From contig CAYNMP010000003.1 of NCBI GenBank assembly GCA_964398475.1, positions 137,269 through 201,268 of the forward strand: DNA of 64,000 nucleotides. The letters run 5' to 3'. Shown piece after piece: positions 1,942 to 63,670 of this stretch. A model generated the notes under the pieces. The model did not search any database and was not told where the DNA came from. It saw only the letters and a program-made list of their open reading frames with translations. How positions within the stretch are numbered: the stretch's first letter is position 1; every line of letters begins with the position of its first letter. The position numbers and the translations under genes are program-made. This DNA comes from an uncultured Chitinophagaceae bacterium. GTDB lineage: Bacteria > Bacteroidota > Bacteroidia > Chitinophagales > LD1.

Positions 1942-3066
1942 ATGCCATCCAATGAAAATAGCGTTTTTTTACGAAAATTGACGCTCACCAACTTCAAAAA
2001 TCACACAAAACGTGATTTTCACCTCACCAAAAAGTTCACCGCTTTTGTGGGACAAAATGGTGTGGGCAAAACGAATTTGTTGGATTTAATCTACTTTTTG
2101 AGCCTGACGAAAAGCTTTTTCAACCTCACCGATCAACAACTGATTAAATGGAACGAGGCATTTGCAAGAATAGAGGCTGAAATCGATAAAAACGGTGAAA
2201 CGCTGGAATTAGTGGTTAAAATCCCACTCAACAAGCGTAAAGAGATTAATGTAAATGGTGCGGTTTACCAAAAGGCTGCTGAATATATTGGAACAATACC
2301 TTTGGTGATTATTTCGCCCGAAGACAGCGACATTATTCAAGGTGGCAGTGAGGAACGCAGAAAATTGTTTGATAATATTTTAGCACAAGTAGATGGTGCC
2401 TATTTAGAAGCGCTGATGGACTACAACAAAATTCTTGAACAACGCAATTCATTACTGAAAATCAAAGCAGAAAAACCGGCTACAGATATTAGTATGCTTG
2501 AGTTTTACAATTCGCGGTTAGCACACTCGGGTAGCTATATTTTTGGGAAACGCAAAGATATTTTTCAGCGTTTTGAAGCTGTATTTCAGCAGTTTTACTC
2601 CATCATCAGCGAAGAAAAGGAGCACGTAAAATGGCACTATGCCTCGCAATTATTAACCAAAGATTGGAATACCCTTTTTGAACAGCATTTACAAAAGGAT
2701 TTAGTGTTACAACGCACATCCGCAGGGATTCACCGCGATGATTTCGAGTTCACCATTCACAATGAAAAGATTAAGAAATTTGGCTCTCAAGGCCAGCAAA
2801 AATCGTTCACCATTGCATTAAAACTATCACTTTATCGCTATTTGCATGAAATGAAAGGTGTATTGCCTATTTTATTGATAGATGATTTGTTCGATAAACT
2901 CGACACGAAACGAATGAAGCAATTGATACGTATATTACAGGGAGATGAGTTTGGACAGGTATTTATGTCGGATACCGATATTTTGCGACTGGAGAAAGCT
3001 TTTGATGGAAATAGAGAACAAATTGAGATTTTTACCATAGATTTAGAGTCGAATGATACGGTATAA
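1942..3066 (+). CDS. recF: DNA replication and repair protein RecF
   Basis: 374 aa. N-terminus LRKLTLTNFKNH, Walker A GQNGVGKTNLLD, SMC-type signature GSQGQQKS, Walker B LLIDDLFDKLD. Confidence 0.9.
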   Translation: MPSNENSVFLRKLTLTNFKNHTKRDFHLTKKFTAFVGQNGVGKTNLLDLIYFLSLTKSFFNLTDQQLIKWNEAFARIEAEIDKNGETLELVVKIPLNKRKEINVNGAVYQKAAEYIGTIPLVIISPEDSDIIQGGSEERRKLFDNILAQVDGAYLEALMDYNKILEQRNSLLKIKAEKPATDISMLEFYNSRLAHSGSYIFGKRKDIFQRFEAVFQQFYSIISEEKEHVKWHYASQLLTKDWNTLFEQHLQKDLVLQRTSAGIHRDDFEFTIHNEKIKKFGSQGQQKSFTIALKLSLYRYLHEMKGVLPILLIDDLFDKLDTKRMKQLIRILQGDEFGQVFMSDTDILRLEKAFDGNREQIEIFTIDLESNDTV

Positions 3067-34900: not shown

Positions 34901-34988
34901 TTTTCGGGTTGTATTTGTTGTTGGTTAATTGTTTTGCGTTTTATAAGCTATTGCCAAGTTATAAATAGTTTGAAAATTCAAAATGTAT

Positions 34989-35827: not shown

Positions 35828-37792
35828 TTATTTCATTTTAATCATCACCGTGCCGGCCTCTACAAAGGTTTTTTCCTGCACGAAAACTTCTTCTACTTCG
35901 CCATCGCTATGCGCTTCAATGGTGGTTTCCATTTTCATGGAATTCATCACCAACAAGGCTTTCCCCGATTCAATTTTATCGCCCGCTTTCACCAATACCT
36001 TCACAATTTCGCCCGGCATTGGGGCAATGTAATCGCCTTCTGCCACAGCACTTCCGGGCTCGGTGAAACGCGGTTTTTCCGAAAACTTCAACGTTCCCAC
36101 ACCCTGTTGTTGCACAAACACTTCTCCGTTTTTCGTAGCCATAGCAAAAGCTTTACGATGATTGTTTATCGTAGCCACTACTCCATGTGCATCGGCACTA
36201 TTGAGTTCCACCGCAAAACAGTTTTCACCCACCACCACATCAAAGCAACCATCGCCTTTGTGACGATATTCCACTTTTACTTCAGCGCCATTCCATTGCA
36301 AAATGTAGTGCTGCGATTGATAATAAATATTGCGCCATCCATTCAAAGTGGCACTCACCGGCTCGGTAGATTTTCTACTTTGCCAATCATATAAGAAAGC
36401 CGCAATGGCCATTTCAGCCACATCGGTAGCGCTTACTTGTTTTTGATACGCACTAAAATCGCGCTCAATTAATTTGGTATCGAAGCTGCCATCCACATAT
36501 TCCGGATGGTTCAACAATGCACCCAAGAAATCTTTGTTAGTCGTAATTCCCAATATGGTATAGTGTTGCAAAGCATAATTCATTTTCTGAATCGCCTCTG
36601 TTCGAGTGCTGCCATAAGCAATCACCTTCGCCAACATACTGTCGTAAAACACATCTACTTTCGAACCGGTTTTCACACCACTGTCGTAGCGTAAACCTTT
36701 CAATGCCGGTTCTTTGTACAACAAAATTTCACCTGTGGCCGGAAAGAAATTATTCTCCGCATCTTCCGCACAAATACGGCATTCTATAGCATGACCGGTT
36801 GTTGTTACATCTCCAATATTCAAGGGCAAACCTTGCGCTACTTCTAATTGCAGACGAACCAAATCCAATCCTGTTACTTCTTCTGTAACCGGATGCTCCA
36901 CTTGCAAACGTGTATTCACTTCCAAAAAGTAAAACGAAGCATCAGCCGGGGAATACAAAAACTCCACCGTTCCCGCATTGGTGTATTGCACCGCTCGCGC
37001 AGCCGCCACAGCCGCATCGCCCATTTGTTGGCGAGTTGCAGCGCTGATAGATGGCGATGGTGATTCTTCAATCACTTTCTGATATCGTCTTTGCAACGAA
37101 CACTCGCGCTCAAACAAATGCACATAGTTGCCATGCGTATCGCCAAAAATCTGGAACTCGATGTGCTTTGCTTTCGGGAAATATTTCTCCATCAACAACA
37201 CTCCACTGCCAAAGCCCTTCTCGGCTTCACGGGTTGCCGTATTGAAAGCGGCTTCCAATTCTGCTTCGCTATTTACTATACGCATACCCTTACCACCACC
37301 ACCGGCACTGGCTTTCAGCAAAACCGGATAACCAATCTTAGCCGCTTCTTTTTGAAAGGTTTCAAAATTTTGATCGCTGCCATTATAACCCGGCACCACC
37401 GGTACACCGGCTTTTTGCATCAATTCTTTCGCGCCAATTTTCGGACCTAATTGTTGTATAGCCGCAGCCGAAGGACCCACAAACAGGATACCCTCATCTG
37501 CACAACGCTGCGCAAACGATGCATTCTCCGATAAAAACCCATACCCCGGATGAATCGCATTAGCACCCGTTTGCTTTGCCGCAGCAATAATTTTATCCTG
37601 ATCCAAATAACTCTCGGCCGGATGCGATCCTCCAATACAAATCGCCTCATCTGCCACAGTTACAAACAACGCATCCCGATCCGCTTGCGAATACACCGCC
37701 ACCGTGCTAATACCCATCGTTCGTGCCGTTCGCATCACCCGAATCGCAATCTCCCCCCTATTCGCAATCAATAACTTTGTTATCTTTTTCAT
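35828..37792 (-). CDS. Biotin-dependent acyl-CoA carboxylase alpha subunit (biotin carboxylase + BCCP; methylcrotonyl/geranyl-CoA carboxylase type)
   Basis: Canonical start MKKITKLLIANRGEIA at ATG 37792; the track start 37804 is TTG. ATP-grasp loop GGGGKGMRIV. C-terminal biotinylation motif NSMKME. Confidence 0.85.
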   Translation of the reverse strand: MKKITKLLIANRGEIAIRVMRTARTMGISTVAVYSQADRDALFVTVADEAICIGGSHPAESYLDQDKIIAAAKQTGANAIHPGYGFLSENASFAQRCADEGILFVGPSAAAIQQLGPKIGAKELMQKAGVPVVPGYNGSDQNFETFQKEAAKIGYPVLLKASAGGGGKGMRIVNSEAELEAAFNTATREAEKGFGSGVLLMEKYFPKAKHIEFQIFGDTHGNYVHLFERECSLQRRYQKVIEESPSPSISAATRQQMGDAAVAAARAVQYTNAGTVEFLYSPADASFYFLEVNTRLQVEHPVTEEVTGLDLVRLQLEVAQGLPLNIGDVTTTGHAIECRICAEDAENNFFPATGEILLYKEPALKGLRYDSGVKTGSKVDVFYDSMLAKVIAYGSTRTEAIQKMNYALQHYTILGITTNKDFLGALLNHPEYVDGSFDTKLIERDFSAYQKQVSATDVAEMAIAAFLYDWQSRKSTEPVSATLNGWRNIYYQSQHYILQWNGAEVKVEYRHKGDGCFDVVVGENCFAVELNSADAHGVVATINNHRKAFAMATKNGEVFVQQQGVGTLKFSEKPRFTEPGSAVAEGDYIAPMPGEIVKVLVKAGDKIESGKALLVMNSMKMETTIEAHSDGEVEEVFVQEKTFVEAGTVMIKMK

Positions 37793-37804
37793 ATCCAAAA
37801 TCAA

Positions 37805-37991
37805 TTTTCAATTCCCAAATTCTTAATCCTTAAACCCTCCATCATCAAATTCCCACTCAATTGCTAAATCATTTCATTCCTAAATTCACACATTAGCATT
37901 TTATCACATTCTCCTCATCATCAAATTCCTTCCCCCATTGTTAAATCCTTTCATTGCTACATTAGCACATTAACGCATTAGCACATTATTT
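37805..37991 (-). repeat. Tandemly duplicated 76-77-bp intergenic repeat, C-depleted on the gene-sense strand
   Basis: Fills the whole spacer between the two carboxylase genes. The unit at about 37837-37910 matches the unit at about 37911-37987. catcatcaaattcc is exact at 37840-37853 and 37916-37929. The longest aligned block shows 40/51 identity. Only 7 G in 187 nt on the + strand. Confidence 0.8.
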
Positions 37992-39587
37992 CTACATCCT
38001 AAACACCCCATACCCCTCAGCGCCTTTCACCTCCGTGTTATGAATCACCTCCATGCAGAACTTCAAGTAATTGCGCGTTTCCCGCGGATCAATTACACCA
38101 TCATCCCACAACTGACCACTTGCATACCAGGCATTACTTTGCTTATCGGCTTCCATCACCATAAACTTAGCCACTTGCGCGCCTTGCTCCTCATCGTATG
38201 CAATGCCCGATTTCTCAGCCGCTTGTCGGCCAATAATTTGCATCACCCCCGCCAACTGATCAGGTCCCATTACCGCAATTTTCGAATTCGGATAGCTGAA
38301 CAAAAAGCGCGGTTTATACGCCCTCCCGCACATCGCGTAATTGCCGGCACCGTAACTCGCACCGGTAATAATAGTAATAGCCGGCACCGTAGAATTACTC
38401 ACCGCATTAATCAACTTCGCACCGTTTTTAATAATGCCCTCTTCTTCATATTTGCGACCCACCATAAAGCCCGTAATGTTTTGCAAAAACAACAACGGAA
38501 TATCTTTTTGATTACACAACTGAATAAACTGCGCCCCTTTGTTGGCAGCCTCCGAAAACAACACTCCGTTGTTCGCTAAAATACCAATCGAATAGCCATT
38601 CACTTTCGCAAAGCCTGTAATTAAGGTACTTCCGTACAACGGTTTAAACTCCGAAAACTCCGACCCATCTACAAAGCGCGCTATCAGCTCGCGTTGGTCG
38701 AACGGAATTTTAATATCAGCCGAAACAATGCCTAAAATTTCTTCAGCCGCATACTTCGGTTCTTCAATCTTTTCTTTGGCGTAATTCGCATTGCCCGGAA
38801 ATAAATTCGACATAATCTCGCGCGCCAATCGTATGCCATCTTCTTGGTCTTCCGCCAAATAATCCGACACGCCCGACACCGCACTGTGCATTTTCGCACC
38901 GCCCAAACTCTCCTCGTCTGTTACCTCGTTGGTGGCCATTTTCACCAAAGGCGGACCGGCCAAAAACACCTTCGCCTCGTCTTTCACCATAATGGTGTAA
39001 TCGCTCATGCCCGGAATGTAAGCCCCACCGGCCGTACTGTTGCCAAACACAATCGAAATGGTAGGGAACCGCGCCTTACTGCGCTGAATAATATCGCGAA
39101 AATTTGCGCCACCGTAATTAAAAATTTTCGCCTGATCCGGCAAATTCGCACCTGCACTTTCCACCATCACAATGGTTGGCAAACCGTTCTCCATCGCAAT
39201 TTCGCCCATGCGCAAGCCCTTCTGCAACGTAGCATAATCAATCGCTCCGCCCTTTATAGTGCCCACGTTCGAATTAATCATACACAGCGTGCCGCTCACA
39301 AAACCAATACCGCACACAATAGTACCGCCAGTGCCAAAGCCATCCATGCCCCAGCCGGCAAACGGACATAATTCCATAAAAGGCGAATCGCGGTCGAGCA
39401 GCAACTCAATGCGCTCGCGCGCCAGCAACTTCCCCGCAGCCTTCGTGCGTTTCAGGTATTTATCCTCGCCCTGAAACAAAGCCTCCTTCACCTTCCCGTC
39501 CAACTCCAAAATTTTCTCTTGCATCAACGCGTAGTTGCGTTTGTAGCTCTCCGAATTCGCGTTTACCTTCGATCGAAATACCGACAT
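37992..39587 (-). CDS. Acyl-CoA carboxylase beta (carboxyltransferase) subunit, methylcrotonyl-CoA carboxylase type
   Basis: 531 aa. Carboxyltransferase architecture with GKLLARERIELLLD..SPFMEL, VGTIKGGA and GNSTAGGAYIPGMSD, co-linear with MCC beta subunits. Confidence 0.85.
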   Translation of the reverse strand: MSVFRSKVNANSESYKRNYALMQEKILELDGKVKEALFQGEDKYLKRTKAAGKLLARERIELLLDRDSPFMELCPFAGWGMDGFGTGGTIVCGIGFVSGTLCMINSNVGTIKGGAIDYATLQKGLRMGEIAMENGLPTIVMVESAGANLPDQAKIFNYGGANFRDIIQRSKARFPTISIVFGNSTAGGAYIPGMSDYTIMVKDEAKVFLAGPPLVKMATNEVTDEESLGGAKMHSAVSGVSDYLAEDQEDGIRLAREIMSNLFPGNANYAKEKIEEPKYAAEEILGIVSADIKIPFDQRELIARFVDGSEFSEFKPLYGSTLITGFAKVNGYSIGILANNGVLFSEAANKGAQFIQLCNQKDIPLLFLQNITGFMVGRKYEEEGIIKNGAKLINAVSNSTVPAITIITGASYGAGNYAMCGRAYKPRFLFSYPNSKIAVMGPDQLAGVMQIIGRQAAEKSGIAYDEEQGAQVAKFMVMEADKQSNAWYASGQLWDDGVIDPRETRNYLKFCMEVIHNTEVKGAEGYGVFRM

Positions 39588-39599
39588 GTTTATCGTGTT

Positions 39600-39780
39600 T
39601 TAATAGAATCCCAATGTAGAAGTAAAATCCATAAAATGCAAACCCCGAACCTAAATCCTTGATTCTTAAATCAAACAGTTAAAATCTCTCCATACGCCTA
39701 AAATTCCATTATCCTCAATCCTATAATTCATTATCTTCCAACTCTTAAATCAAAAAAATTTAAATCAAAAAATAGTTTGG
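39600..39780 (-). repeat. Diverged member of the same C-depleted word-repeat family, directly upstream of the carboxylase beta gene
   Basis: The minus-strand reading is rich in gatttaa / ggaatt / gataatg / aaggatt words shared with 37805-37991 and 57325-57510. About 8 G in about 165 nt on the + strand. The similarity is compositional and word-level, not a clean alignment. Confidence 0.5.
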
Positions 39781-39857
39781 GCGTGTTAACGCGCTATCCA
39801 CTGCAATCTTTGCCTCGAAGCATCGGCAAAGGATTTCCGTTCCTATCGCTCACGCTG
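39779..39857. repeat. REP-like imperfect palindromic element
   Basis: Outer pairing gcgtg (39781-39785) / cacgc (39851-39855). Inner stem ctttgcc (39808-39814) / ggcaaag (39825-39831) with a 10-nt loop. The layout resembles short palindromic intergenic elements I recall from Bacteroidota genomes (from memory, not verified). Confidence 0.4.
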
Positions 39858-40045
39858 CATTGTAGTACCATCAAAATTTATCTTCAGAACGTCATTCCCG
39901 GAGAGGCAATAATCTTATGAAATTGCTCCACATCCTCACATCTGTCTTTAGGGCAAATGCTAGGGGATATGGAGCGACTAAGAACAGTGGAGTTTGTGTT
40001 GGTGGAAACCTCCGATTTGAAGCAAAAACCTAGAGCACTACTTGA

Positions 40046-56476: not shown

Positions 56477-57313
56477 TTACTTTTTCAACAAAAACTTCCG
56501 TATCACATTTGTGTCTTGATGCTCTCTTTTAATCTTCAACGATTTTTGCAATAGCTTAAGTAATTCCAATTCCACTTTGGCTTTCATAATTTGTTGAATG
56601 GCTGCATCTTCGAATTGCTCTTTGTATTTTTTAGTAGAAATACGTTTGCCGAAATTGAAATATAATTTTTCCGGTCGCGGAATAATGGTATTGCCAATGC
56701 CTTTCACTAAAGGAGGCACGAAATCTCCACCGCGTAAAAGGGTGTCCATCAGTCCTGTTTTCTCCAGAATTTTACCAAAGAAATTATCGTGGAAGAAATC
56801 GTTCGCATCTTTTACCACCGTGAAGGCTTCTTCTGCTCCTACTGCGGCCACCGGAATAATATCGTAACCGTGCTTCATGGCCATACGCACAAAACCCGTG
56901 CGATCGTTCCATTTCAAGGTGTATTCTTCGCCTTTCTTTTTAAAGGTTTCTCGCGCTCCACCGGGGAAAACAATAATGCTCTCTTTGTTGCGCATCAGTT
57001 CCTCACAATTTTCGCGCGAGGCTTCCACAATGCCCAGTTTTTCCGAAATCATATCACGCCAATAGGGCATTTTAAAATGCATGCGATCGGCTAGGGTTCG
57101 GAGTACAATCCCTTTGCGAATGTATAGTTCAATGGCGAAGGGATAGCCGTCTAAAACGCCCATTACGGAGTGGTTGGTCACATACAATGCGGGTCTGCTT
57201 ACATTCAATTCATCTATACCAATGAACTGCGGATCAAAGTAGAGTTTAAACGGTTTGATGAAATTTTTCGCAAACGTTTTCGATGGTGGTGTAAAATCAA
57301 ATTTCTTTTCCAT
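56477..57313 (-). CDS. Acyltransferase of the LPLAT superfamily (PlsC/MGAT-like)
   Basis: 278 aa. Motifs YVTNHSVMGVLDG and IVFPGGARE resemble acyltransferase motifs I and III. The spacing of motif I is non-canonical. Confidence 0.55.
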   Translation of the reverse strand: MEKKFDFTPPSKTFAKNFIKPFKLYFDPQFIGIDELNVSRPALYVTNHSVMGVLDGYPFAIELYIRKGIVLRTLADRMHFKMPYWRDMISEKLGIVEASRENCEELMRNKESIIVFPGGARETFKKKGEEYTLKWNDRTGFVRMAMKHGYDIIPVAAVGAEEAFTVVKDANDFFHDNFFGKILEKTGLMDTLLRGGDFVPPLVKGIGNTIIPRPEKLYFNFGKRISTKKYKEQFEDAAIQQIMKAKVELELLKLLQKSLKIKREHQDTNVIRKFLLKK

Positions 57314-57324
57314 GGCTCAATATA

Positions 57325-57510
57325 AGGAATTTAGAATTTGATAATGTGATAATGTAGAAATGAAACGATTTAACAATGTGGGAATTTGAAAATTAAGATT
57401 TGACATTTTGCCAATGTGTTGATTTGATGATGGAAGAATTGGAAATTGAGATTTGGCGATTGGAAATTTATTGGTAGGAGAATTTGATAATTGAGATTTG
57501 AAAATTGGTT
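57325..57510 (+). repeat. Inverted-orientation copy of the C-depleted intergenic repeat, upstream of priA
   Basis: 57343-57377 matches the reverse complement of 37937-37971 at 32/35 positions. tttgatgatgga (57423-57434) matches the reverse complement of 37838-37849. Only 6 C in about 186 nt on the + strand. Confidence 0.8.
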
Positions 57511-57561
57511 ATTCAAAACCATGTCTTCCTTTCTATGGAAGAAATACTAATTTAGAAGCTT

Positions 57562-60015
57562 ATGTCTTCCGTAGTTACGTATTGCGATGTGCTTTTACCG
57601 CTGGCCTTGCCACAGCGCTATAGCTATGCCATTCCATTTGATTTGGTGGAGTTTGTGCGCATAGGGCAGCGGGTAATTGTGCAGTTCGGGAAGAACAAGT
57701 ATTACTCGGCTATTGTTTGCGACATCCATCACCGCAAACCGGCATTCGATGCCAAACTCATCGATTCCATTGCCGATGAATTTCCGATTGTCACCACAAC
57801 GCAACTGCAGTTTTGGAAATGGATGTCGGATTACTACATGAGCACCGAAGGCGAAGTGATGAGCGCTGCGCTCCCTGAAGGGTTGAAACTGAACAGCGAA
57901 ACAAAAATCGTGTTCAACGAACAATACAATGGCGATTACGATAGTCTTTCTGGCGATGAATTTCTGATTGTGCAAATGCTAAAAGCACAGCGCGAAATTA
58001 CCATCACTCAAATTCAAAAAGCGCTGGCGAAGAAACATGTATATCGTTTGCTCAAGCCTATTTTCAATTTAGGTATTGCCTTTACAGCCGAAGAATTTGT
58101 TCCGAAGTACAAAACCAAAACGGAGAATTATATTCGGTTAGCTACAGTATACGAGGACGCTAAAAAGCTCGAAGACTTATTCGGAGAACTGAATCGAGCA
58201 CCAAAACAGTGCGATTTGTTGTTGTCGTTTTTGCAAATTTCCAAACAAACGCGATTTGTGCGTAGGGCTGAACTGCTTGCCAAGAGCGGAGCTTCGGCCA
58301 CCATACTCAATGGTTTGTTGGAAAAGAAAGTATTCGAACAAGTGCGTGTGGAAGTTTCTCGTCTGGGTACTTTCTACGAAGATAGTGGTGTTGAAATCAA
58401 TTTATCCGAAGCGCAGCAAACCGCTATGAATGCTATTGAGCAGCAATTTGAATCGAAGCAAACGGTGCTCTTGCATGGCGTTACCGGAAGTGGGAAAACA
58501 GAAATTTATATTCAACTCATTAAAAAGCAATTGGAAGCCGGCAAACAGATTTTGTATTTGTTACCCGAAATTGCATTAACGGCACAAATTATCAACCGAC
58601 TGAAAAATTATTTTGGTTCGGTATTAGGCGTGTATCACTCGAAATTCAATTTGCACGAACGGGTAGAGATTTGGCATAAAGTATTGAGTGGCGAATACAA
58701 AATTATTGTTGCCGCTCGTTCCGGTATTTTTCTTCCGTTCCAACAATTAGGTTTGTTGATTGTGGATGAAGAACACGACTCTTCCTACAAGCAAACCGAT
58801 CCATCGCCTCGTTATCATGCACGCGATGCAGGTATTGTTTTGGCGAACCTTCATCAAGCTAAAGTGTTGCTGGGTTCTGCCACGCCATCGCTGGAAACCC
58901 TTTACAATTGCGAGAAACAGAAGTTTGGCTTAGTGCGTTTGGAAGAACGTTTTGCTGCCATGGAAATGCCGGAGGTGAAGCTCGAGAACATGAAATTCAT
59001 TTTGAAGAAAGGCGAAACACCTAAAGTGTTTTCCGACTATTTATTGAATGAAATTCAAGCGCAACTGAATGAGAAAAAACAAGTTATTTTGTTTCACAAT
59101 CGAAGAGGTTTTTCATCGTATCAGATGTGCAAAACCTGTCAGCATATTTATAAATGCAAGTACTGCGATGTGAGTTTAACCTATCACAAATTTCAGCATA
59201 AATTAGTTTGTCATTACTGTGGCTATCAAGAGAAAATAGAACAACATTGTGTAGCTTGTGGTGCGCCCGATTTGGACATTATAGGCAATGGAACCGAGAA
59301 AATTGAGGAAGAAATTGCAGCACAATTTCCGAAAGCGAAAGTGGGTCGATTAGATTTGGATTCGGTGCGTGGAAAGCATGCACATGAGCATATCATCTCC
59401 TCTTTCGAAAATCATGAAATTGATATTTTGGTGGGTACACAAATGGTGTCGAAGGGCCTAGATTTTGATGACGTGGGATTAGTGGGTGTGATACAAGCCG
59501 ATATGTTATTGAATTATCCCGGATTTCGTTCGCATGAAAAAGCATTTCAGCTACTCACCCAAGTGAGTGGTAGAGCCGGACGGAAAAACAAACGCGGTAA
59601 AGTAATTATTCAAACCAATTCGCCCGATAACTATGTGTTACATGCTGTTGTAGCGCACGATTTCAATGCAGTGAAAGCCATGGAAATGCAAAACCGACAA
59701 CAGTTTCATTATCCGCCATTTTGTAGAATGATACAATTGCGTGTGCAAGAAAAGAATGTAATCAAAGCCGATAAGGCCGTATTGTATTTGGCGAATGCCA
59801 TTCGTAAACTCAATCAGAGTGAGGTGTTGGGGCCTTCAGCGCCATTAGTGAGTAAAGTGAATAATTATTATTTGCGCGATGTGATGGTGAAAACGAATGG
59901 AAAAACGAAAGACTTAAGCTCTTTGAAAATAGCTATTCGCGGTATTTTAGACGATATGAAAAGCAATGCCGAATTGAAAAGTATTCGGGTGTTGGTGGAT
60001 GTAGATCCGGCATAA
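57562..60015 (+). CDS. priA: Primosomal protein N-prime (replication restart helicase PriA)
   Basis: 817 aa. Walker A LHGVTGSGKTE, DEEHD box, and the Cys-rich zinc-binding insert CKTCQHIYKCKYCDVSLTYHKFQHKLVCHYCGYQEKIEQHCVACG. Confidence 0.95.
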   Translation: MSSVVTYCDVLLPLALPQRYSYAIPFDLVEFVRIGQRVIVQFGKNKYYSAIVCDIHHRKPAFDAKLIDSIADEFPIVTTTQLQFWKWMSDYYMSTEGEVMSAALPEGLKLNSETKIVFNEQYNGDYDSLSGDEFLIVQMLKAQREITITQIQKALAKKHVYRLLKPIFNLGIAFTAEEFVPKYKTKTENYIRLATVYEDAKKLEDLFGELNRAPKQCDLLLSFLQISKQTRFVRRAELLAKSGASATILNGLLEKKVFEQVRVEVSRLGTFYEDSGVEINLSEAQQTAMNAIEQQFESKQTVLLHGVTGSGKTEIYIQLIKKQLEAGKQILYLLPEIALTAQIINRLKNYFGSVLGVYHSKFNLHERVEIWHKVLSGEYKIIVAARSGIFLPFQQLGLLIVDEEHDSSYKQTDPSPRYHARDAGIVLANLHQAKVLLGSATPSLETLYNCEKQKFGLVRLEERFAAMEMPEVKLENMKFILKKGETPKVFSDYLLNEIQAQLNEKKQVILFHNRRGFSSYQMCKTCQHIYKCKYCDVSLTYHKFQHKLVCHYCGYQEKIEQHCVACGAPDLDIIGNGTEKIEEEIAAQFPKAKVGRLDLDSVRGKHAHEHIISSFENHEIDILVGTQMVSKGLDFDDVGLVGVIQADMLLNYPGFRSHEKAFQLLTQVSGRAGRKNKRGKVIIQTNSPDNYVLHAVVAHDFNAVKAMEMQNRQQFHYPPFCRMIQLRVQEKNVIKADKAVLYLANAIRKLNQSEVLGPSAPLVSKVNNYYLRDVMVKTNGKTKDLSSLKIAIRGILDDMKSNAELKSIRVLVDVDPA

Positions 60016-60130: not shown

Positions 60131-62566
60131 ATGTCTGTATTTACCTCCCCTAAAGGTTACATTTTATACTTACTACTGTTTTCCTATTTATCGTTAGAAG
60201 CCCAATGGAAGAGAGTTTTAAATCCTAGCAATCTTAATGGAAGCTCTGTTGCTAATAATACTGTTTTTGATGCCGATAAAAATCTATTTGTTCTTTTAGG
60301 AAATTTTGACACTAACTCAATGAATGTATTCATTTCAACTGATAGTGGTAAAACTCAAAGTAGTTCAGCTCAGCTATTAAATATAATTAATGATGTTGCT
60401 GTAATGGGACATAAAATTATTTTTGCTACCGATAGCGGTGTACAGGCAAGTGTCGATACAGGTAAAACATGGTTCCGTTCAAATGTGGGTTTACCTGCGG
60501 ACAAACCCATAGTATGTTTTCATAAAAATGGATCTGCTTTGTATGCTTCAGTTGAGGGAAAGATTTTTAAATCAATAGATTCAAGTGCTTCTTGGACACT
60601 TGCTGCTCCAGCAACAGCTATGGCTTATTTGAATTTCTTATCGGTTGTAGACAGTTCTATTTATACTGGCAACTCAATTGGTTTATATAAATCGGTGAAT
60701 GGGGGCAATTGGATAGATTTGACAAATAGTTTAGGACTTCCATCTACTGATATTACTGCTGCAAAAATTGATGCCAATAAAATAGTTTTAGGGACACGTA
60801 AACAAGGGGTATTTATATCTACCGATGGAGGAATAAACTGGGTTAACAGAAGTAATCAGTTACCTACCTACACTATAAGTGCCGGAACATTTTATTATCA
60901 AGTTAAGCATATTGAATGTATTGGAGCTATTATTTTAATGGCAATTGAAGCTCCAGTATTTCAAAATGGGTTATTCAGATCTGACGATAATGGATTAAGT
61001 TGGCAAAATGTTCAAACAGAACATATGCAGTTTACGCCAACATTTGAAACGTTCAAGCTAATTAATAACACGTTATACGGCTATGAAAAGTATAATGGAG
61101 GTCCACAAACTACTTTAGGTTTAGTAGCGTCTCCTGATACTGCTGTTCATTGGTATTGTATTAATTTCGATTGGAAAATCACTAAAGCAATAGGTAATAT
61201 TTATAACAATAAAAGTTTATTGTTTTGTTCAGAGTTTGCCTCCAATGATAATGGTGAAACTTGGTTCGTTACTGCTCCATTCGCTTCAGAAGTAATTCCA
61301 TATAACGATAGTATTGTCCTGTCCGTTACGAGCTCCAATCCGCAAGATGATACCATCCATATATCGTATGATAATGCTGCCACATGGCAGAATTACAAGA
61401 CGAAAACACCTGCACCATTTTACGACATGTGGAAAGCACTAAACGGTAAAATTTATGAGACTGGTAGTTCATATTATGTGTCGACAGATATCGGGAAAAC
61501 ATGGAATAGCGTTTCGTTTATACCTTTTTCGTCCTCAGCTAACCTCTCTTGTGTTAATGACTTAACTCGATTAAAGGTTTCGCATGATGAAGGCCTTACA
61601 TATAGTAATGTTATTTTCCCGCTAAGATCTGGAGATAATATTTGGAGTTATGATGCCTTAGGCGATAGACTAATAGTAGGCGCTAGAGAAAGTGGTTTGT
61701 TTTTTTCAAAGTTTGATGGTATACAATGGAGTGCCCCAATCTACATGGGTCTTTTGTATGACCCTATAGTTTCCGTTAAACTATTCGGGCGGTATATATT
61801 TGTGGGGATGGACGGATATATAAGATATGTTCATGAAGATGTGCCAACCAACTATTGGCCAATTACAGGTTCATTTTCTGATATCAATACAGGAGCATCT
61901 GGTTATGTCAATTCGATTTCAATCATCGATGGCAATATATTCGCTTCCACCAACAATGGCCTTTGGAAAAATTCTTTACTCGATATTATTCATTGTGACG
62001 CCTACTACACTACAACGTATGATTCAGTTTATAATACCTTTTATTTAGATATTGATCCTATGACACTCACTTTAGCGTCTTCCTATTATTGGGATTTTGG
62101 TGATGGGAGTACCTCAACGTTGAAAACGCCAACACATACTTATACAAAAGACAGTGTATATATTGTTTGTATGAAGGTCTATACTAAAAATGGAGATTCC
62201 TGTCAATACTGTCGTATAATTGGGAAAGATGCACAAGGAAATATTGTACGCAACACAGGTTTTAGTATTAATGTAAGAAATGGAAGCCCTACTAAAACGG
62301 ATGAAGTTAAAGAATTCTCATCTTACGACTTTGCACAAGTCTTTCCTAATCCCTTTTCTGAATCCATTACCATTCTCTTTGAAAATGAACATCAATCACA
62401 TGTAGTGAAAATTTTTGATGTGCTTGGTAAAGAAGTAAAGTCGGCTGTGTTTTCAGGAAGAGAGCTAACATTACCTGGTTTGGATATAAATAGCGGTGTA
62501 TACAATTTAGTTATAATAGACGAGAAAGGAAATAGTATAAAACGAAGAATCGTTGCTAATAACTAG
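60131..62566 (+). CDS. BNR/Asp-box (sortilin/VPS10-like) repeat protein with PKD domain and T9SS CTD
   Basis: 811 aa. About ten SxDxGxTW-type Asp-boxes (STDSGKTQ, SVDTGKTW, STDGGINW, SDDNGLSW, SNDNGETW, STDIGKTW ...). PKD segment WDFGDGSTSTLKTPTHTYTKDSVY. C-terminus VFPNPFSESITILFE...GVYNLVIIDEKGNSIKRRIVANN. Confidence 0.75.
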   Translation: MSVFTSPKGYILYLLLFSYLSLEAQWKRVLNPSNLNGSSVANNTVFDADKNLFVLLGNFDTNSMNVFISTDSGKTQSSSAQLLNIINDVAVMGHKIIFATDSGVQASVDTGKTWFRSNVGLPADKPIVCFHKNGSALYASVEGKIFKSIDSSASWTLAAPATAMAYLNFLSVVDSSIYTGNSIGLYKSVNGGNWIDLTNSLGLPSTDITAAKIDANKIVLGTRKQGVFISTDGGINWVNRSNQLPTYTISAGTFYYQVKHIECIGAIILMAIEAPVFQNGLFRSDDNGLSWQNVQTEHMQFTPTFETFKLINNTLYGYEKYNGGPQTTLGLVASPDTAVHWYCINFDWKITKAIGNIYNNKSLLFCSEFASNDNGETWFVTAPFASEVIPYNDSIVLSVTSSNPQDDTIHISYDNAATWQNYKTKTPAPFYDMWKALNGKIYETGSSYYVSTDIGKTWNSVSFIPFSSSANLSCVNDLTRLKVSHDEGLTYSNVIFPLRSGDNIWSYDALGDRLIVGARESGLFFSKFDGIQWSAPIYMGLLYDPIVSVKLFGRYIFVGMDGYIRYVHEDVPTNYWPITGSFSDINTGASGYVNSISIIDGNIFASTNNGLWKNSLLDIIHCDAYYTTTYDSVYNTFYLDIDPMTLTLASSYYWDFGDGSTSTLKTPTHTYTKDSVYIVCMKVYTKNGDSCQYCRIIGKDAQGNIVRNTGFSINVRNGSPTKTDEVKEFSSYDFAQVFPNPFSESITILFENEHQSHVVKIFDVLGKEVKSAVFSGRELTLPGLDINSGVYNLVIIDEKGNSIKRRIVANN

Positions 62567-63496: not shown

Positions 63497-63550
63497 AGCA
63501 TGTATTGGAATTGAGTTGTAAAGTAATGCTTTTAAAGGAAATTTAATGGA

Positions 63551-63583
63551 CCTCACCCCGACCCTCTCCAAAGGAGAGGGGGG
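63551..63583. repeat. Short GC-rich palindromic (REP-like) element
   Basis: ccctctcc (63562-63569) aaa ggagaggg (63573-63580), flanked by cctcaccccga and ggg. It produces the spurious PPSPLERVGV N-terminal extension of the channel ORF. I recall this sequence type as common in Bacteroidota intergenic DNA. Confidence 0.55.
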
Positions 63584-63614
63584 AAGATCGATAAGCTTGA
63601 ACTTTGAGTCGAAC

Positions 63615-63644
63615 AAAAAATCCCGGACCGAAAACCGGCCGGGA
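63615..63644 (-). terminator. Rho-independent terminator after the partial T9SS-cargo gene
   Basis: GC-rich stem tcccgg (63621-63626) / ccggga (63639-63644) with extra pairs. On the minus strand it is followed by tttttt (A run 63615-63620 on +). Lies 27 nt after the stop at 63671. Confidence 0.7.
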
Positions 63645-63670
63645 GTAAAAGGGGATTTGGCTTTTGGTGT

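Follow-up and report, generated by a model that had tools for sequence, protein, structure and literature searches.

The window, the whole stretch of 64,000 nt that was analysed, comes from an uncultured Chitinophagales bacterium that is present in several MAGs and many metagenomes. Pfam searches place an acyltransferase gene on its minus strand (56477-57313, with the start at 57313) and, transcribed divergently on the plus strand, the gene that encodes PriA (57562-60015). The spacer between the acyltransferase start and priA contains an array of short repeats, designated array A (57325-57515, plus strand), with 7 C in 191 nt, and the C-poverty originally reported for 57325-57510 is confirmed by a count of 6 C in 186 nt (67 A, 46 G and 67 T). 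Array B (37793-37991, minus strand) occupies the entire gap between the stop codon of a carboxyltransferase beta gene (37992-39587, minus strand) and the ATG of a biotin-carboxylase alpha gene of the methylcrotonyl-CoA-carboxylase type (35828-37792, minus strand, true ATG at 37792), both also assigned by Pfam, and has 7 C in the 199 nt of its sense strand. Upstream of the beta gene, array C (39640-39782, minus strand, 8 C in 142 nt) lies between a conserved ~55 nt that precede the beta ATG and a Flavo-1 RNA motif (RF01705; 39783-39860, minus strand), which scores 49.8 bits (gathering score 42) and adjoins array C as a separate element.

Two further arrays, D and E, are seen in the sister lineages designated L008, L067, L077 and L078. 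In the window, array D is a short remnant (63497-63549, plus strand) that abuts the start of an ion-channel gene, to which its C-poor strand is antisense; the full version, of ~156 nt, is present in L008, L067 and L077. Array D is located directly after an intrinsic terminator with a 12-bp stem, and array E adjoins the start of a thioesterase gene, on the upstream side. These five loci are known from the ~80 kb examined plus the sister alleles, and the 9 kb that adjoin the window on its left contain no arrays. All arrays are positioned 0-60 nt from a start codon and one of the five, array B, is intercistronic.

Repeat units and homology of the arrays

The arrays consist of degenerate 8-nt words, of the types NAATGNNN and RATTTGAT, with one strand nearly C-free, and can be read as successive octamers, TAATGTGC TAATGCGT TAATGTGC TAATGTAG CAATGAAA GGATTTAA CAATGGGG and so on, in which (A/G)AT holds a fixed position and the remaining positions vary. 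Autocorrelation at a lag of 8 is evident in array A (z=6.6), in array B (z=4.0) and in two sister alleles of array B (z=4.7 and 6.0), with array C having only a weak period of 7 (z=3.1). The 8-nt words make up higher-order units of ~65-77 nt. Array A has one clear unit (~57332-57396, plus strand; nhmmer unit profile E=2e-14), which contains a 35-nt core (57343-57377), and a second, degenerate unit (~57409-57494, plus strand; E=1.1). A near-perfect 8-nt tandem repeat, AATGTGAT / TGATAATG, extends from 57335 to 57358 on the plus strand and is reported by TRF as period 8 at 57335-57355. Array B carries, in the window, two tandem copies of a unit (TRF period 77, 1.9 copies), each of ~77 nt, at 37913-37989 and 37837-37912 on the minus strand (E=2e-20 and 3.4e-19), and these are followed by a conserved tail (37793-37836, minus strand). 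The unit profile found no matches in the window beyond the units of arrays A and B. Alignment of nine core units from five lineages has 27 invariant columns and the consensus TGnTAATGTGnTAATGTAGnAATGAAATGATTTAACAATGGGGGAAGGAATTTGATGATG, with the block AATGAAA-N-GATTTA-N-CAAT invariant across all nine.

The original prediction that an inverted copy of the carboxylase spacer lies upstream of priA is borne out by the sequence. The reverse complement of 37937-37971 matches 57343-57377 at 32 of 35 positions, that of 37838-37849 matches 57423-57434 at 12 of 12, and the repeat finder extends the ungapped inverted arm beyond 35 nt, to 50 nt at 86% identity. When the whole spacers are compared along their C-poor strands, arrays A and B have a gapped local alignment of ~165 nt with a score of 85; dinucleotide-preserving shuffles of both spacers score 24.4 +/- 3.6 (z=17), with 0 of 500 as high, and outside the 35-nt core the score is still 41 versus 20.7 +/- 3.5 in shuffles. 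The z of 17 and the significance outside the core establish that the two spacers are homologous over ~165 nt, a similarity not explained by composition. Two sites in the window match the 35-nt pattern exactly, where 0.00 are expected by chance, and a third, at 37860-37894, matches it with 3 mismatches. The kinship also claimed for a third site, array C upstream of the beta gene, is not detected within the window, where its similarity to arrays A and B (z=1.8 and 1.3 versus shuffles) is not above that given by composition, and array C is tied to the family solely via alleles in sister lineages. This last result is what would favour chance similarity arising from the skewed local composition; for arrays A and B, however, that reading is already refuted by the shuffles and by the expectation for the 35-nt pattern, and overall its probability is close to nil. 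The same units are found again in independent assemblies and lineages, and modules with the same C-poor polarity are common to unlinked spacers, so that random AT-rich spacer DNA is ruled out, as originally argued.

In the window, array A is linked to array B by the core. The L067 allele of array A is linked to the L048 and L018 alleles of array B by a TGATTTGATAATTTG.TGATGGA module (score 71, z=12-16), the L046 allele of array C matches the L018 allele of array B at 22 of 22 positions (z=12), and the L075 allele of array C matches array D (score 48) and array E (score 45), with z about 9 and 0 of 300 shuffles as high. Read along their C-poor strands, no locus matches the reverse complement of another and all significant matches share the C-poor polarity. 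The claim that the C-poor strand is the sense strand of the gene immediately downstream does not hold across the five loci. It is the sense strand at arrays B and C, and is antisense at arrays D and E to the gene whose start codon each abuts. Array A is uninformative because the flanking genes are divergent (acyltransferase on the minus strand, priA on the plus strand), and either orientation is sense to one of them. Of the informative loci, the two with strong links to the core family, B and C, are both sense, and the antisense arrays, D and E, are linked by weaker scores. Replication direction was also considered as what sets the orientation; there is no DnaA-box cluster or replication origin in the window, and GC skew in the window follows the gene strand.

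Lineage restriction and turnover of the arrays

The repeat family is restricted to one uncultured Chitinophagales lineage and its sisters. A search for the core pattern in 185,579 species genomes, which do not include the source genome, returned 4 single, chance-like matches in unrelated taxa. Metagenome contigs, again without the source genome, gave 30 matches, of which only those on 2 sister-lineage contigs are real and extended. Two scans of viral contigs did not find the core pattern, and phage and plasmid records have no similarity to the arrays.

The sister lineages compared are 87-96% identical in nucleotide sequence in coding DNA, and the arrays differ extensively between them. At site B, the spacer has 187 nt and one core in L048; 209 nt, with one core plus three copies of TGATTTGATAATTTGATGATGGAGG, in L018 and L046; 199 nt and two cores in the window and in L049-L054; and 244 nt and three cores in L078. 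Collinearity between these alleles is confined to a few bases at the start and ~40 nt at the end. At site A, the 248-nt spacer of the window lineage, with the core, is replaced in L008 and L013 by a 256-nt allele that has one extra 8-nt unit of the tandem repeat at 57335-57358, a copy-number difference within the population, and in L067 and L077 by a 177-nt allele that lacks the 35-nt core. Nearly unchanged at this site are ~27 nt beside the acyltransferase gene and ~78 nt beside priA. Site C varies as well, with ~55 nt in L078, ~130 nt in the window and L046, and ~190 nt in L075. Array spacers are only 57-65% identical between lineages versus 93-100% for ordinary short spacers of the same lineages, which served as controls and are equal in length. 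Structural change is concentrated in the arrays, and, to judge from the L067 and L077 alleles, the 35-nt core is dispensable upstream of priA.

More distant relatives extend this comparison. In L068, in which the alpha protein is 69% identical, the order of the operon is the same, with a 1-nt overlap between the beta and alpha genes, from which it follows that array B is a lineage-specific insertion or expansion inside the operon. In L015 and L016 (PriA 70% and 68% identical, respectively), priA has other neighbours and a spacer of 66-87 nt with a terminator hairpin and no array. A conserved priA leader was considered and is ruled out by these array-free spacers.

Within the population, array A has one SNP and one indel among 11 sequences, a low diversity that might suggest purifying selection, but adjoining coding stretches of similar length are invariant too. 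The 11 near-identical assemblies have mosaic diversity around this site, with ~370-nt stretches (57190-57561 and 57934-58305) that have at most one variable site adjoining others in which 124 nt contain up to 35 variable sites. Such a mosaic suggests frequent recombination between co-occurring strains.

Interpretation of the array family

Promoters in Bacteroidota have a -7 box with the consensus TAnnTTTG and a -33 TTTG, at about 19-21 bp (PMC9723704), and the arrays were originally described as leader or promoter-associated elements. If promoter-associated, they would provide the downstream gene with promoters, with an upstream activating or curved-DNA module, or with a site for a nucleoid protein. 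Their proximity to start codons is consistent with this, as are the several one-mismatch -7 boxes in array A and a sequence count in which TTTG, which forms the -33 element and also occurs in the -7 box, is ~4-fold enriched on the C-poor strand. However, there is no exact TAnnTTTG in arrays A, B and C, whereas the other spacers of the window have 10, mostly 25-50 nt before start codons; all the one-mismatch boxes in array A are without the conserved TA, and the single one in array B is 3 nt before the ATG. No canonical Bacteroidota or sigma-70 promoters were found inside the arrays, and between beta and alpha there is neither a terminator-like site nor an exact -7 box. Array B is, furthermore, part of an operon in which relatives have overlapping genes, the 8-bp period is out of step with the helical repeat, and at site A conservation resides in the ~78 nt beside priA and not in the array interior or the 35-nt core. 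We consider a promoter-associated DNA element distinctly unlikely. That part of the original prediction is set aside on these grounds and by the absence of the core upstream of priA in L067 and L077, the array-free priA spacers of distant relatives and an orientation that is antisense at arrays D and E and uninformative at array A; the arrays are neither a conserved priA leader nor a canonical promoter. What survives of it is that the arrays form a genuine dispersed family. A non-autonomous mobile element (a MITE, a REP or an IS derivative) that transposes into spacers would account for dispersed copies, for a core that is present or absent depending on the lineage and for the location of one copy between formerly overlapping genes. 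Against such an element, there are no inverted pairs in array B, none at the ends of array A and no terminal inverted repeats, nor are hairpins possible, since a C-free strand cannot self-pair; no target-site duplication was seen at the arrays, and the phage and plasmid records already mentioned hold nothing similar. The alleles differ by internal modules within conserved spacer edges, with no discrete element ends, and not by gain or loss of a whole element, and transposition is, in our view, very unlikely as their origin.

The arrays might instead act as RNA. A C-less leader or spacer RNA with AAUG every 8 nt could, by analogy with TRAP and HutP, be a platform for a multimeric RNA-binding protein, or for S1, that promotes or regulates how the downstream gene is translated, in a phylum without Shine-Dalgarno pairing. 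The fixed octamer position of (A/G)AT among otherwise variable positions would fit such a role, as would the core block that is invariant in nine units, the exact termination of array B at the alpha ATG and its conserved tail, and the finding that array RNA is less stably folded than shuffles (z=+0.6 and +0.9). Fixed register would, however, also result from a decaying tandem repeat, and a platform is difficult to reconcile with one to three units at one site, with a core that is dispensable upstream of priA in L067 and L077, with the antisense orientation of related arrays and with the arrangement of the same genes in relatives without any spacer; we regard it as unlikely. Overlapping UAAUG words, each joining a stop to a start codon, could, alternatively, relay terminating ribosomes through mini-ORFs from the beta stop to the alpha start, restoring the coupling broken by the insertion. 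Chains of six to seven tiny ORFs, with gaps of no more than 18 nt, are present in all three array B alleles tested, but ~50% of dinucleotide-preserving shuffles also reach the alpha AUG and the gap statistic is not significant (p=0.12-0.18). The chain thus follows from composition, and a relay is extremely unlikely.

Several other assignments were considered. The arrays contain no credible small ORFs, Rfam matches in arrays A and B are limited to chance snoRNA-type hits (E at least 0.4), and the Rfam gathering threshold is reached only by the Flavo-1 motif at 39783-39860. A structured RNA was rejected because neither Rfam nor folding gave a signal. Readings as Fur boxes, IHF sites or DGR-like elements were dropped, as every word has the same orientation and such sites would need C/G on the depleted strand.

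The explanation that we prefer, and to which we give an even chance, is a lineage-restricted, dispersed and non-coding family of STRR-like repeats that changes by slippage and unequal recombination within loci and by exchange between loci, with arrays inside operons limited in orientation. Arrays would grow, shrink and rearrange within a locus by slipped-strand mispairing and unequal recombination, as indicated by the 8-nt copy-number polymorphism and by the one, two or three core units at one site. Modules are probably also traded or seeded anew from one spacer to another, with ectopic recombination or gene conversion as the presumed route, given that different modules are common to different loci in different lineages. 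For array B, inside an operon, the orientation seen may be the only one that is tolerated. Its sense RNA, being C-less, unstructured and rich in stop codons, would provide neither Rho binding nor a terminator, allowing the downstream genes still to be transcribed, and the alpha gene would then start translation independently after the array. Arrays of the opposite orientation would be found outside operons, as D and E are.

The invariant nine-unit block and the conserved spacer edges and tails could reflect function instead of recent copying.

Rho rut sites are unstructured RNA with a C>G skew and YC dinucleotides (PMC6144790). With 7 C versus 57 G in 199 nt, the sense RNA of array B is almost C-less and, as a rut site needs C>G, should not be recognized by Rho; inverted, array B would form one continuous C>G stretch. 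This Rho component is deduced purely from base composition and deserves less confidence than the overall explanation. It could be taken further, with the arrays as orientation-dependent transcription insulators built from composition alone. In the C-less orientation Rho could not load, and a ~200-nt untranslated insert could split formerly overlapping genes without polarity, as at array B; in the other orientation, the C-rich, G-poor and unstructured RNA would be a near-ideal rut site and might serve, at arrays D and E, as a Rho-dependent back-up terminator downstream of genes. By fast slippage and inter-locus exchange, the lineage could then adjust spacer length as well as polarity. We consider insulation of this kind, too, a distinctly long shot.

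Among known systems, the STRR of heterocyst-forming cyanobacteria are strand-asymmetric, lineage-restricted and can form hairpins. They are 7-bp tandem repeats scattered over spacers, among them the intercistronic spacer of hupS-hupL (PMC2670836). STRR are the closest known kind, although their defining period of 7 and their phylum are not those of the present arrays. Both consist of short-unit tandem arrays in non-coding spacers, for the present family at five loci in the ~80 kb examined, one of them intercistronic, and both have strand asymmetry and a narrow lineage; they differ in that the present words have 8 nt, are degenerate and are arranged in ~65-77-nt units, and in that the present arrays are nearly C-free, unstructured and from Chitinophagales. 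As in VNTRs and minisatellites, copy number varies between close relatives (one to three units of ~70 nt, plus or minus one 8-nt unit), and in this respect the arrays behave as VNTRs. Like contingency loci, they adjoin gene starts and vary in a way that is consistent with slippage; contingency loci are, however, usually perfect repeats at a single gene that switch its expression, whereas the present arrays are degenerate and have sequence in common at unlinked loci. REP, BIME, ERIC and MITE elements are also small, dispersed, non-coding, intergenic and sometimes cotranscribed, but are defined by palindromes or terminal inverted repeats and the arrays have neither. Flavo-1 is likewise an element dispersed in Bacteroidota spacers, and adjoins arrays C and E, but is a structured motif of ~76 nt, and the arrays are unstructured and do not match it. 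The binding arrays of TRAP and HutP, which have periodic GAG/UAG triplets, resemble the present arrays in having a regularly spaced short conserved word in an unstructured leader RNA, and these leaders are likewise C-poor. They differ in their periods (5-6 nt for TRAP and 7 nt for HutP, versus 8 nt here), a known protein partner and a conserved position, whereas the present arrays vary in copy number and presence, and what they show of such a system is the periodic (A/G)AT word.

If this description holds, the arrays add a Bacteroidota example to the few dispersed short-tandem-repeat families, so far mainly cyanobacterial, and one that is unusual for its strict strand asymmetry and its documented turnover between sister lineages. 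Array B, where ~200 nt of untranslated sequence separate genes that in relatives overlap, would be a natural test case for how transcription and translation continue across such an insertion without Shine-Dalgarno pairing. The arrays would also serve as strain-resolving markers for the lineage and are likely break points in metagenome assemblies. For priA the finding is mostly negative, with control apparently assigned to the ~78 nt beside the gene, which share only the last ~30 nt of the array.

The priA-proximal segment and neighbouring observations

The ~78 nt that precede the priA ATG (57484-57561, plus strand) begin in the end of array A (57484-57515) and have only 1-2 mismatches to L067 and L077, sister lineages in which coding DNA is only 87-90% identical. 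This segment is likely to be the true priA control region. Between 57484 and 57600, two small hairpins can be drawn, GGUUAUUCAAAACC and UCUUCC-N7-GGAAGA, with a folding z of -2.56, and a 9-codon uORF (57522-57551) opens with the 9 nt with which priA, too, begins. A possible alternative partner for GGAAGA is UCUUCC in codons 2-3 of priA. These predicted hairpins and the uORF may provide translational control of priA.

Copies of Flavo-1 are present in the window (39783-39860, minus strand), in L005 (19904-19983), in L008 (19998-20077) and in L046 (245-325), each with the end of a gene on its upstream side and, on the other, an array followed by the start of the next gene. Between the copy that precedes the beta gene and that of L046 there is 1 mismatch, despite divergence of the neighbouring array. 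At window positions 34901-34988, sister lineages have an insertion of ~820 nt (L018 4260-5168; L048 5204-6112) that includes an ORF encoding a 137-aa PDDEXK_3 protein (PF13366), preceded by two ~110-nt direct repeats with 'cacatagacacatag' words. Similar words are present in L077 (16380-16640), and these repeats are another repeat family. Elsewhere, a gene encoding a 96-aa DciA protein (PF05258; 3053-3343, plus strand) overlaps the end of recF (1942-3066), and the stretch that it occupies is thus coding and not spacer.

Downstream of priA, a gene for an 811-aa type IX secretion substrate (60131-62566) is absent from L067 and L077, where the ion-channel gene directly follows priA, and the secreted-protein genes that neighbour it are the most polymorphic stretches in the population. 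Further downstream, at 63550-63660, a perfect 8-bp hairpin (ccctctcc-aaa-ggagaggg) is followed by a terminator-like hairpin, and these hairpins stand in place of most of the array D that is present in L008, L067 and L077.
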